A DNA stretch of 64,000 bases from Escherichia phage vB_EcoM_ULIM3, in sequence record OQ850289, one strand, 5' to 3'. Within the stretch, counting starts at the first letter, position 1. The number at the start of each line of letters is the position of its first letter. The translations under genes were made by a program, and so were the position numbers. The notes under the pieces were generated by a model. It had not been told where the DNA came from, searched no databases, and worked only from the letters and a program-made list of their open reading frames with translations. Shown one piece after another: positions 13,019 through 16,055 of the stretch.

Positions 13019-13068
13019 AATGACCTCAAAGTTATATTAAATTTTGTATTACATTGAGTATAAAAATA

Positions 13069-13107
13069 AGCTATAACACCTGACTTGTCAACAGATTTTA
13101 TAGCTTA
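13069..13107 (-). promoter_or_regulatory. palindromic operator-like site overlapping a TTGACA -35 element upstream of 12635-13018
   Basis: AAGCTATAA ... TTATAGCTT 9 bp inverted repeat with TTGACA in the 21 nt spacer (minus-strand reading). Confidence 0.4.
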
Positions 13108-13139
13108 TTTGGCAGATTTTTTATAAGGCTACTGCCATC

Positions 13140-13480
13140 CTTCCATACCAAACCTCACCTGACCTCGCCTAACCCTACCTTACTCCACCATACAGCACCT
13201 TATTAAAACACCCTGTTTAAAGACCTTTTAAAAAGGTAAGTCTCATTTTAATGTAGCTGAGACTAACTACCCATACCTCACCCTACCAGACCCTACCGAA
13301 CATCACTTAAAAACCCTCTTAGAAGACTCTTAAGTGATGTAATCGAATTTTAATGTAGCTCCGATTAACTACCCATACCTCACCTCACCCAACCATACCA
13401 TGCCTTGCCAGACCGCACCTTACCTCATTAAAAGACCCTCTTAAAAGACCTTTTAAAAAGGAGCCTCCGAAGAGGCTACC
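13140..13480 (-). repeat. non-coding repeat region (purine/GGT-rich on - strand) with conserved ~150 bp element
   Basis: No ORF; contains 7 bp inverted repeat AGTCTCA..TGAGACT and 10 bp inverted repeat CATCACTTAA..TTAAGTGATG; element recurs at 14720-14895. Confidence 0.6.
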
Positions 13481-13488
13481 TAGTCAAC

Positions 13489-13929
13489 TTAGAAAGGTTT
13501 TCTACGTTGCTTGTTAATGTTAGCTTTCATAGCAGCTAAATGGTTTTGCTGTTCAATCAGTCGTGAACGTTCTTGATGACTAAGCGCCATAGTGTTCACA
13601 TTCTCAATTGCTTGAGTGGCTTGCTTTAAAGCTCGACCAATCTTACCAGACATTTTGCGTTTTGCAATAGTTGCTTGATGCTTAGGTTCAACCACACGAT
13701 AACCAACACCCATTGAAGCAACCAGATAAATCTTCTCTTCTTTAAGAAGCTTTTCAATAAACTTCTCAAGTCGGTTTAGACGTGTAAGTGCATAAGCCTT
13801 CATTTCATCTTCGTACTTAACAATGTCACCTTGATAAGTTGGCTTCACAATACCTAAGAAGGTGTCCATCTCGGAATGTGATACAGTGTCGCCGTAACTA
13901 AACTTTGCTGCTAATGCTTTTGTATTCAT
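13489..13929 (-). CDS. hypothetical protein
   Basis: 146 aa ORF flanked by repeat regions. Confidence 0.55.
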   Translation of the reverse strand: MNTKALAAKFSYGDTVSHSEMDTFLGIVKPTYQGDIVKYEDEMKAYALTRLNRLEKFIEKLLKEEKIYLVASMGVGYRVVEPKHQATIAKRKMSGKIGRALKQATQAIENVNTMALSHQERSRLIEQQNHLAAMKANINKQRRKPF

Positions 13930-13931
13930 AA

Positions 13932-14534
13932 TTAAACGTTACCTTCTGAAATAACTTCTACAGAAAAACGACCAAAGCGTGGACGCCAATCACCTACACC
14001 ACAAAGGTTACCAGCATTTTCCAGAACCATCAGAAGTTCCTCTTTGGTGATTTGCTCTTCATCAAACATCAAACCAAACTCTACAGACCAGTCACGGAAG
14101 ATTGGACGGTAGCTCATAACTCGTGCTGTACCAATCTTAACAGACTTAGCATAGATAAAGTCTGGATTCTTAGCAAGTTCTTGTGGGTTTGCTGGACAGT
14201 TCTTGATAGTCATTGGGAAGACTACATCTGTCAGCATAATGGCTCGGTCAATTACCTTACCAAGTTTGTTGAGTTTTGCACCAGACTTGATACAAGCCTC
14301 AATCATCTCACCGTTCATAACAAAACCAAGTTGCTCATCGTAGTAACAAGAAGTTACCAGTTGGCTTTCTGCTAAGAGCGCATAGTCTTCGTCAGTCTTT
14401 TTACGTTTACTGGACAGAGACTTGTGATATTTTGTCAGAGGGTTTAATGGGTCTGACAACGTATCGTTATGGCTCAAGAAAGGACGAGTACCAGTGATTT
14501 TGATATTTAGCAGTTTCATAGCATTTAGCTCCAC
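13932..14534 (-). CDS. hypothetical protein
   Basis: 200 aa ORF flanked by repeat regions. Confidence 0.55.
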
Positions 14535-14589
14535 ACTTTAGTTGATTGTTAAGTTGTTTGTAAAGAACCCTCAACAGAAGACTCTTTAG

Positions 14590-14900
14590 AAACTTGGTAG
14601 ATTTTTAACGTGGCTACTACCATCCACCCATACCTCACATCACCATACCATACCATACCATACCATACCATACCTGACCGGACCTAACCAAACTCCACAG
14701 CACCATACATCACATCACACAACCTTATTAAAAGACCCTGTTTAAAGACCCTTTAAAAAGGTAAGTCTCATTTTAATGTAGCTGAGACTAACTACCCATA
14801 CCAAACAGCACCGCACTATGCCTTACCCCACCTCACCGAGCCTCGCCCCACATCACTTAAAAACCCTTTTCAAAGACTCTTAAGGGATGTTGGTGAGTAC
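14590..14900 (-). repeat. non-coding repeat region, second copy of the conserved element plus (CATAC)6 microsatellite
   Basis: No ORF; 14720-14895 near-identical to 13195-13345; pentanucleotide CATAC x6 at 14644-14673. Confidence 0.6.
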
Positions 14901-14954
14901 CCGTTGGTTTATGCTGCTCAGTATACTCACCAAATTTTCTATGTCAACAACTTT

Positions 14955-16055
14955 TTACTCATAATCCCTAATAACTAACCCAACAGGGAACTGTAAAGAC
15001 CCCTTACGAGTCATCTTCTGGAACTGAACCGTTAAAGGCTTCCCGATAAACTCTTCAGGATGCTCAGCCAGATACTGCTTTTTCTCATGAGTGGTTTTCC
15101 ATGAGACATCTACAAAGACGTTAGGAAGAGTCTCTACAACGAACTTACCATGACCACGTTTATCAGTCTTTACACCAGTTACTTTAAACTCTTCAGTGTG
15201 CATCTTCTTGTGCTTAATCAAGAAGTATGAACGGTGACAACACTCATAGAAGGAGTCTTCAGAGATTGAACGGTACATTGCACCTTCAAACTTAGCTTCA
15301 ACCCACTTATCATGAGCTTCATCAAATTCTTCCCAAGAATTTACACGGATAGTCTGCACAGGAACAACTCTACAGGTATCCCCAAGCTCAACAATAGGTG
15401 AGTTATCAATAACTTCACGACGCTCAGGCCAAGATTTTGAATTGTCACAGATATCATACCAGTAGAATTTAAGAAGGTGACGGTCTGGATTGTCAGCATT
15501 CTTAATCATAGACACAATATCTTCTAAGTCCCAACCATGAGCATAAATCTCTCCATCAAAGTCTTCAACTTGCGGATGTAATTTAAGCAACAAAAGTAAG
15601 TCTGGTATTAGTTCTGCTGGAACGTTGTAAACAGTATTCTCACGAGAATAAGCTGTGAAACCGACTGAATCAGCATCTCTTGAAATTCTACAACGTACAC
15701 CATCCAGTTTCGGTTGAGCATCAGCAGGGAACTTCAGATACTTTGCATGACTAACCTTTGCAGCATCATGAGCAAGCTGTACACCTACCTTCTCAGTATT
15801 CTGTGCAGACTCTTTTGTGTAAGCATACCCTTTACGGTCAACTTGCTTTTTATACTTAGCAGCAACTTCAAAGAGAGCTTGCTGTTCAGCATTACGCTCA
15901 TTCTTTTTACCGATGTTTTTAGGTTCTGCTGTATACTCTTCAAACATCATCTTGCCATTTTCTTTGCCATAGGTTGTAATAACCTTGTCACCTACAGCAG
16001 TACATGACCAGATGTTAAAAGAGCCATCTTTATTTTGTTTGTACAGTATTGTCAT
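14955..16055 (-). CDS. ATP-dependent DNA ligase
   Basis: KLDGVRC adenylation motif (KxDG), EGAMY and LIKHKK downstream motifs; start set to ATG 16055 (MTILY) with GAGGA SD. Confidence 0.8.
   Translation of the reverse strand: MTILYKQNKDGSFNIWSCTAVGDKVITTYGKENGKMMFEEYTAEPKNIGKKNERNAEQQALFEVAAKYKKQVDRKGYAYTKESAQNTEKVGVQLAHDAAKVSHAKYLKFPADAQPKLDGVRCRISRDADSVGFTAYSRENTVYNVPAELIPDLLLLLKLHPQVEDFDGEIYAHGWDLEDIVSMIKNADNPDRHLLKFYWYDICDNSKSWPERREVIDNSPIVELGDTCRVVPVQTIRVNSWEEFDEAHDKWVEAKFEGAMYRSISEDSFYECCHRSYFLIKHKKMHTEEFKVTGVKTDKRGHGKFVVETLPNVFVDVSWKTTHEKKQYLAEHPEEFIGKPLTVQFQKMTRKGSLQFPVGLVIRDYE

Follow-up and report, generated by a model that had tools for sequence, protein, structure and literature searches.

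We analysed a 64,000-nucleotide stretch of Escherichia phage vB_EcoM_ULIM3 (sequence record OQ850289), here called the window, and describe in it a 1.9-kb region with two genes between blocks of repeated sequence, which we read with high confidence as a type II VIPR (Viral Interference Programmable Repeat) locus. The phage belongs to the Felix O1-like myoviruses (Ounavirinae), and the 1.9-kb region matches 230 phage records, nearly all of them Felix O1-like; its closest relative is Escherichia phage VpaE1_ev035, with 97.9% identity over the region. From the thymidylate synthase gene to the DNA polymerase gene, every gene lies on the minus strand of the window. The two open reading frames (ORFs) that an earlier reading of this DNA (the original prediction) had placed at 13489-13929 and 13932-14534 are both there, on the minus strand. 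The likelier start of the second is the ATG at 14519, which gives a protein of 195 amino acids, as in gene 95 of phage wV8 and in all homologues. They are flanked, as had been described, by long non-coding sequences, 13019-13488 (470 bp) and 14520/14535-14954 (about 420-435 bp). The wV8 record annotates 'DR_4' repeats on either side of its genes 94 and 95, and the genome papers of Felix O1, wV8 and UAB_Phi87 contain no discussion of the repeat element.

The two flanks had been said to share a near-identical element. We found that this holds for conserved blocks, but not between the blocks, where variable tracts differ in length: 13143-13306 and 14668-14831 are 77% identical over 164 nt, and the core block, 13198-13282 versus 14723-14807, is 94% identical over 85 nt. 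The predicted inverted repeats, AGTCTCA/TGAGACT and CATCACTTAA/TTAAGTGATG, were recovered, the right-hand copy of the second with one mismatch, and so was the pentanucleotide microsatellite (period 5, 6.6 copies, 100% match, 14642-14674). These palindromes correspond to the head boxes and tail hairpins described below, the 10-bp one being the D-type head box at 13301-13336. When all 64 kb were scanned for CC with a period of 5 (GG on the gene strand), five tracts were detected, all in the two intergenic regions and none elsewhere. Such a pattern lies well outside what chance would produce.

VIPR was described in two bioRxiv preprints (10.64898/2026.04.26.720920 and 10.64898/2026.04.26.720927; April-June 2026), and the system is therefore already known. 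It comprises three components: Vipr, a minimal RAMP protein with an RRM core, a G-loop and a thumb; an accessory vap gene; and guide RNAs (vrRNAs) made of 9-16 YNNGG repeats and an invariant pseudoknotted tail. The same preprints report that in phage SUSP1 one Vipr protomer sits on each repeat and holds GGY, while NN is paired with double-stranded DNA and every third target base is skipped, leading to transcriptional silencing. The expression of SUSP1 vrRNAs, their co-purification with Vipr and the silencing were shown there by small-RNA sequencing, pull-down, and GFP and phage assays. Most natural targets of the SUSP1 clade were located on an E. coli satellite phage, and vap1 was found to enhance protection.

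The window carries five vrRNA guides, two upstream of vipr/vap1 and three downstream. Each has a conserved head box of ~35 nt, 6-20 YNNGG pentamers and an invariant pseudoknotted 3' tail. The head boxes were located by box grammar and motif search, vipr by its PDB 36pp_D match and its identity to SUSP1, and vap1 by SUSP1 identity and weak fold matches. In the direction of the genes, the features are:

14892-14947, minus strand: promoter P1 (TTGACA-16-TATACT), upstream of vrRNA1, vrRNA2 and vipr, 11 of 12 consensus positions
14851-14886, minus strand: head box D (palindromic), before vrRNA1
14762-14850, minus strand: vrRNA1, 11 YNNGG units (14796-14850) and a C-type pseudoknot tail (14762-14797)
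14727-14761, minus strand: head box A, before vrRNA2
14596-14727, minus strand: vrRNA2, 20 YNNGG units (14628-14727) and a c-type pseudoknot tail (14596-14627)
14553-14595, minus strand: head-box-like element E, with no tract behind it, running into the vipr ribosome-binding site and conserved in all vipr-containing loci
13932-14519, minus strand: vipr, 195-amino-acid Vipr, a RAMP-fold subunit polymerising on the GGY motifs of vrRNA
13489-13929, minus strand: vap1, 146-amino-acid VIPR accessory protein, predicted to bind DNA
13462-13480, minus strand: intrinsic terminator hairpin after vap1, its U-run forming the start of the next head box
13427-13461, minus strand: head box A, before vrRNA3
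13339-13427, minus strand: vrRNA3, 11 YNNGG units and a C-type tail, a variant with the compensated stem TAATCGGA/TTCGATTA
13301-13336, minus strand: head box D, before vrRNA4
13237-13300, minus strand: vrRNA4, only 6 YNNGG units and a C-type tail
13202-13236, minus strand: head box A, before vrRNA5
13111-13202, minus strand: vrRNA5, 12 YNNGG units and a c-type pseudoknot tail
13057-13110, minus strand: promoter P2 (TTGACA-17-TATTTT), serving the downstream genes, with a 19-nt inverted repeat enclosing its -35 box

To place this arrangement in context, we compared 29 loci: the window, wV8, bumzen, VpaE1_ev035, Felix O1, SUSP1, Mijalis and 22 IMG/VR contigs. On the gene strand they share one grammar, in which P1 is followed by one or two head box-tract-tail units, a leader, the two genes, a terminator, one to three further units and P2. 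The two-gene block has a constant length of 1,072 bp. Among the 70 unique tracts, position 1 of the pentamer is a pyrimidine (Y) in 99%, and G occupies position 4 in 82% and position 5 in 97%, whereas positions 2-3 are variable, with no base above 41%. Tract length varies by 5-nt steps and is mostly 11-13 units; the window tracts have 11, 20, 11, 6 and 12 units, two of them outside the 9-16 range of the preprints. The head boxes (A, D) and tails (C, c) are nearly invariant over three genera, whereas the tracts differ at nearly every unit, even when the neighbouring protein is 97-99% identical. The guide NN of vrRNA1, for example, reads GG GA TC GA GG AA AT GC GC TT (AT).

The conserved parts were also analysed individually. 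A motif search for the head box returned five good matches at tract heads, against 0.05 expected, and no other convincing site in the 64 kb. The box contains two GGTCTTT-like half-sites, its D type is palindromic, and it is a candidate promoter or processing signal. An H-type pseudoknot fits both types of tail, and 98-100% of cells are paired. Compensated pairs were observed in the C-type hairpin (three) and, for the c type, in the pseudoknot helix (two) and the hairpin (one), which represent few independent events. The covariance models of Rfam 15 gave only two chance-level matches (E >5), and the vrRNAs are not among its families.

Two of the five tracts have unusual lengths. The vrRNA4 tract is probably truncated, because the closest relative has about 12 units at this place. 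The (CATAC)6 microsatellite consists of six GGTAT units within the vrRNA2 guide (14642-14674), and VpaE1_ev035 has four copies, which suggests a slippage expansion and that replication slippage may add guide units.

The -10 box of P1 is flanked by the inverted repeat GGTGAGTA/TACTCACC, and P1 is identical in nearly all 29 loci, whether vipr is present or not. The inverted repeats wrapping P1 and P2, both sigma-70-type promoters, are possible operator sites and are conserved in vipr-less phages too.

Next, we examined the two proteins. A family profile search with hmmsearch matched the 195-amino-acid protein to PDB 36pp_D, 'SUSP1 Vipr protein', with E = 4.3e-81, and the window protein is 98% identical to SUSP1 Vipr, the structure of which has been solved (PDB 36pp). 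Its AlphaFold2 model has a pLDDT (predicted local distance difference test) of 94.3, and among PDB entries released up to April 2026 the best fold matches were Csm3/Cas7 RAMP subunits. A C-terminal loop of 12 residues is conserved throughout the family. H17, K33, R39, E71, M72, K82, G87, K88, R138, C173, D177, W178 and R179 are all kept in the window protein with the same numbering; these residues, together with T175, were named as binding GGY or the DNA strand in the structural preprint on SUSP1 Vipr (bioRxiv). The 146-amino-acid protein is 99% identical to the product of the SUSP1 gene adjoining vipr, which was named vap1 in the preprint. The AlphaFold2 model of Vap1 has a pLDDT of 96, and its weak fold matches are mostly winged-helix domains. 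A word-index search for Vap1 homologues yielded near-identical proteins only, and a full HMMER scan yielded 234 distant relatives. Pfam, PHROGs and PADLOC assigned no function to either protein.

The association between arrays and Vipr extends to other viruses. An exact scan of IMG/VR for (GGTNN)7GGT found at least 120 loci on unrelated viral contigs, many with clusters of heterogeneous arrays, and tblastn showed that divergent homologues of the 195-amino-acid ORF (21-43% identity) adjoin arrays. Among the matches listed, a Vipr-profile match was present in 41 of 120 loci; for 40 of the 41 the nearest array shares the strand, and the median distance is 62 nt.

These data bear on the idea that the G-rich period-5 tracts are a replication origin or a recombination hotspot acting through R-loops or G-quadruplexes. 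The non-template strand downstream of a strong promoter is indeed G-rich, the phage has a T7-like replisome and the locus is deletion-prone. However, the tracts occur in many unrelated phages, beside vipr and co-oriented with it, any repeated sequence gives deletion-proneness, and viable Felix O1-type phages with tract loss argue against an essential origin. The pyrimidine constraint on the third base of the pentamer is explained by the Y-pocket of Vipr (bioRxiv preprint) and not by G-quadruplexes or R-loops. We therefore regard an origin or hotspot as highly improbable.

Several of the other viral loci have array layouts of their own. In L035 and L138 the arrays begin at the vipr stop codon; 6-7 tracts follow one another, with AAGGCTAATG between them and a strong terminator at the end. 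In L088 there are at least 10 tracts, separated by GGCAGTT, and L139 has 18 arrays. These four loci presumably represent other VIPR types.

We then asked what the guides of the window match. Chromosomal homologues of the SUSP1 baseplate-hub gene were found in 474 of 5,426 complete E. coli genomes, and six satellites from those genomes (L151-L156) were scanned with mismatches. Each is ~11-12 kb long (that in L151 spans about 4450-16350) and carries a large serine recombinase gene together with tape-measure and baseplate genes related to those of Felix O1-like phages; three of the six also have a small serine recombinase. Their integration sites differ (yciI/tonB, lafU/dinB, a DUF72 gene and ymdF/wrbA). 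PAR, ZH177 and FAM21845 are examples of E. coli strains that bear the satellite. The scan followed the 1-nt-skip (xNN) rule of the preprint, in which NN pairs with DNA and every third base is skipped.

Matches covering 0.90-0.95 of the NN positions were found in these satellites for four of the five guides. For vrRNA1, 19 of 20 NN positions matched in the large serine recombinase gene, in frame. Units 3-12 of vrRNA2 matched at 19 of 20 in the large recombinase gene of another satellite variant, again in frame, and this match stops at the microsatellite. vrRNA5 matched at 20 of 22 in a hypothetical gene of the satellite, in frame, and vrRNA3 at 18 of 20 in an intergenic region ~120 bp upstream of a satellite gene. 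The guide of vrRNA4 is too short for a target call. From the coordinates, the skipped base in the three in-frame coding targets is the codon wobble position. The predicted target sites lie at 15186-15214 in L151, at 13563-13591 and 8412-8440 in L156, and at 7471-7505 in L155. In a permutation control covering vrRNA1, 3 and 5, with the vrRNA2 sub-window outside it, the observed score of each of the three was higher than that of all 200 permuted guides.

Among 69 unique guides from all loci, 42 reached at least 0.8 and 23 at least 0.9 with a skip of 1, whereas none reached 0.9 under skip rules 0, 2 or 3 or after permutation. All 42 guides at or above 0.8 matched inside the satellite and not in the flanking chromosome; the criterion of the VIPR preprint (bioRxiv) for natural targets is 80%. 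Self-targets in the 64-kb window scored at best 0.63-0.75 for the four longer guides; the 5-unit guide of vrRNA4 has a 9/10 self match in the window, but a guide of this length is uninformative. Exact xNN scans of IMG/VR returned nothing for guides 1 and 5 and, for guide 3, one match in a giant-virus metagenome-assembled genome, probably by chance.

One of the six satellites (L154, 4057-4126, minus strand) carries its own array of 14 YNNGG units with a c-like tail, the stem of which (GUCG/CGAC) is compensated. A vipr gene is absent from all six, and satellites of this kind that carry vrRNAs presumably borrow Vipr in trans. That some satellites carry vrRNA was also noted in the VIPR preprint (bioRxiv).

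One of the two readings offered in the original prediction was a duplicated regulatory leader with operator sites. This reading is not supported, because the repeated units are guide-RNA genes and the two ORFs beside them encode the Vipr effector and the Vap1 accessory protein. The helix-turn-helix protein encoded at 12129-12458 had been suggested as a partner of the palindromes, and a role for it at the locus is not indicated. In a broader form, the repeats would be duplicated transcriptional control regions (promoter/operator or antitermination), with the G-rich tracts a mere spacer or a Rho-resistant leader. Near-consensus sigma-70 promoters do bracket the region, and palindromes overlap them. 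The head-box half-sites GGUCUUUAAAC also have what we take to be a resemblance to boxA. Nevertheless, control regions leave unexplained the strict YNNGG periodicity with free NN, the 5-nt length steps, the cross-phylum association with Vipr and the gapped satellite matches. Moreover, small RNAs from the equivalent positions of SUSP1 co-purify with Vipr (bioRxiv preprint), and we give this explanation almost no credence.

Taken together, the region is very likely a type II VIPR locus of the SUSP1 clade, consisting of vipr, vap1 and five vrRNA genes, with guides aimed at a ~12-kb E. coli satellite. Judging from the 98-99% protein identity and the RNA anatomy, Vipr protomers of the window would form a filament on each vrRNA, one per YNNGG pentamer. 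By analogy with SUSP1, each would hold GGY and present NN, which would pair with double-stranded DNA so that two bases are read and one is skipped. Target binding would silence transcription, and Vap1 would strengthen the effect. The phage may in this manner suppress a satellite that parasitises its own infection cycle, with targets that include the large serine recombinase gene.

Several points weigh against this interpretation. The contact residue T175 of the preprint is V in the window Vipr, as it also is in the SUSP1 genome copy, and a structural-neighbour search with Vap1 gave nothing significant. No guide has a perfect target in the genomes examined; BLAST searches of the 5,426 E. coli genomes with the edited sites returned only the alleles with one or two mismatches that the satellites had already shown. 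That the five window vrRNAs are expressed and processed is something we infer from the analysis. One or two of the guides may be non-functional, because vrRNA4 has 6 units and the microsatellite interrupts vrRNA2. In addition, the source papers on VIPR are preprints.

Among characterised systems, the type II VIPR of SUSP1 is closest in its gene order, P1, P2, terminator, head boxes, both tail types and YNNGG code, and in its target class, an E. coli satellite bearing baseplate and tape-measure genes of the Felix O1 type. It differs in having four vrRNAs (one upstream and three downstream) instead of five (two and three), and in the NN sequence of every guide; in the window one guide is cut to 6 units and one is expanded by the microsatellite to 20. 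The second characterised type II system, from a Pseudomonas fulva prophage, was set beside the window by its description. It likewise has Vipr, vap1, YNNGG vrRNAs and an R-loop triplex, but its natural targets are regulators of a resident prophage and not a satellite (bioRxiv preprints).

Class 1 CRISPR effectors (Cas7/Csm3 on crRNA) share the RAMP fold of the Vipr model, at a template modelling (TM) score of about 0.5. According to the bioRxiv preprint they also share the use of one protomer per RNA repeat unit and base flipping by the thumb. They differ in their 6-nt period with 5 guide bases, whereas VIPR has a 5-nt period, 2 guide bases per unit and a target reading that skips 1 nt, and here comes from a lytic phage. 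The locus contains no CRISPR array, cas1/cas2 or nuclease, neither protein has a Pfam or PADLOC match, and the repeats are 5-nt units within each guide.

A further likeness is to TRAP on the trp leader RNA of Bacillus, where an oligomer recognises about 11 copies of a conserved triplet set 2 nt apart. The TRAP oligomer forms a closed ring and works by attenuation, and its spacers carry no information, whereas the VIPR filament is open and its spacers are the guide. No TRAP homologue is present. A TRAP-like attenuation array, boxA/boxC antitermination and a Rho-proof leader were dropped as candidates since the arrays adjoin Vipr homologues in unrelated phages and the protein has its PDB match. 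On the same Vipr-array and PDB 36pp evidence we dropped a T7-type primase-site cluster or origin, switch-region-like R-loop tracts, two-tetrad G-quadruplexes, Chi-like or BREX-site decoys and small-terminase pac sites.

The comparison of related genomes, which the original prediction had proposed as a check, revealed that the two genes are either present or lost and that repeat units are retained. Across the 29 loci, the distance from P1 to P2 takes one of three sizes, ~190 bp, ~335 bp or 1.6-1.9 kb. In the short forms, which include Felix O1, both genes are lost and the junctions lie inside repeated vrRNA units. The region had also been regarded as a possible mobile or recombination-prone cassette. 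These gene-less short forms support the second part in a narrow sense, and no evidence was found for a mobile element in its own right. Through its repeated vrRNA units the locus would readily undergo deletion by homologous recombination.

The vipr-less loci (Felix O1, L004 3420-3701; L008, L012, L018, L023-L026 and L028) keep one or two complete head-tract-tail units between P1 and P2; in Felix O1 there is one. In the phage collection, 230 records have a vrRNA-type element and a Vipr with 90% identity or more is encoded in 117, leaving about half without one. For some of the orphan guides a satellite match at 0.8-0.9 of NN positions persists, and orphan vrRNA repeats are slightly, though not significantly, more degenerate (p = 0.09). 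It is a tentative and rather unlikely possibility that the orphan vrRNAs of vipr-less Felix O1-type phages are functional and not scars, either borrowing Vipr in trans from co-infecting relatives or serving as decoys that titrate a competitor's Vipr. The text of the VIPR preprint contains nothing on vipr-less phages, head boxes or the making of type II vrRNAs; the words 'orphan' and 'biogenesis' do not appear in it, and its mentions of promoters and processing concern other matters.

A rival reading is that the VIPR system of this phage is in decay, with intact proteins, an eroding guide set and little or no function. In favour of this, vrRNA4 is down to 6 units, the (GGTAT)6 expansion ends the target match of vrRNA2, vipr and vap1 are lost altogether in about half of the related phages, and no guide gave a perfect match in the genomes examined. 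On the other hand, Vipr and Vap1 share 98-99% identity with their SUSP1 counterparts, which are active in experiments, and the key residues listed above are kept. Satellite matches of 90-95%, above the 80% criterion of the preprint, were obtained for three complete guides and half of another, and the tails and head boxes are intact. Decay thus appears improbable to us.

With this assignment, two 'hypothetical proteins' and ~900 bp of repeats become a defined RNA-guided system. The same holds for over 100 deposited Felix O1-like genomes, of which several serve in typing or biocontrol. The annotation also yields specific satellite genes in E. coli as candidate targets. VIPR is of importance for its non-contiguous guide code and as a proposed ancestor of CRISPR effectors. 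The value of the present analysis lies in confirmation, in precise coordinates and in leads that are absent from the preprints, namely the loss of vipr/vap1 with orphan vrRNAs, the head box before each guide and the microsatellite expansion in a guide.

Other repeats were observed elsewhere in the window. Between 50900 and 57100, short genes are preceded by direct repeats of 58-117 nt that belong to several families; these repeats contain the hairpin GGGGAGGGAATGACCTTCCCC, after which come GGAGATTCAAAAATG gene starts, and promoter-like TTTACA-GGGGCTTA repeats occur at 51.4-54.7 kb. These are probably the early-region direct repeats reported for Felix O1. Between 5900 and 8800, the tail-fibre genes contain internal direct repeats (33-71-nt families) that correspond to the intragenic ones reported in Felix O1 genes 76 and 77.

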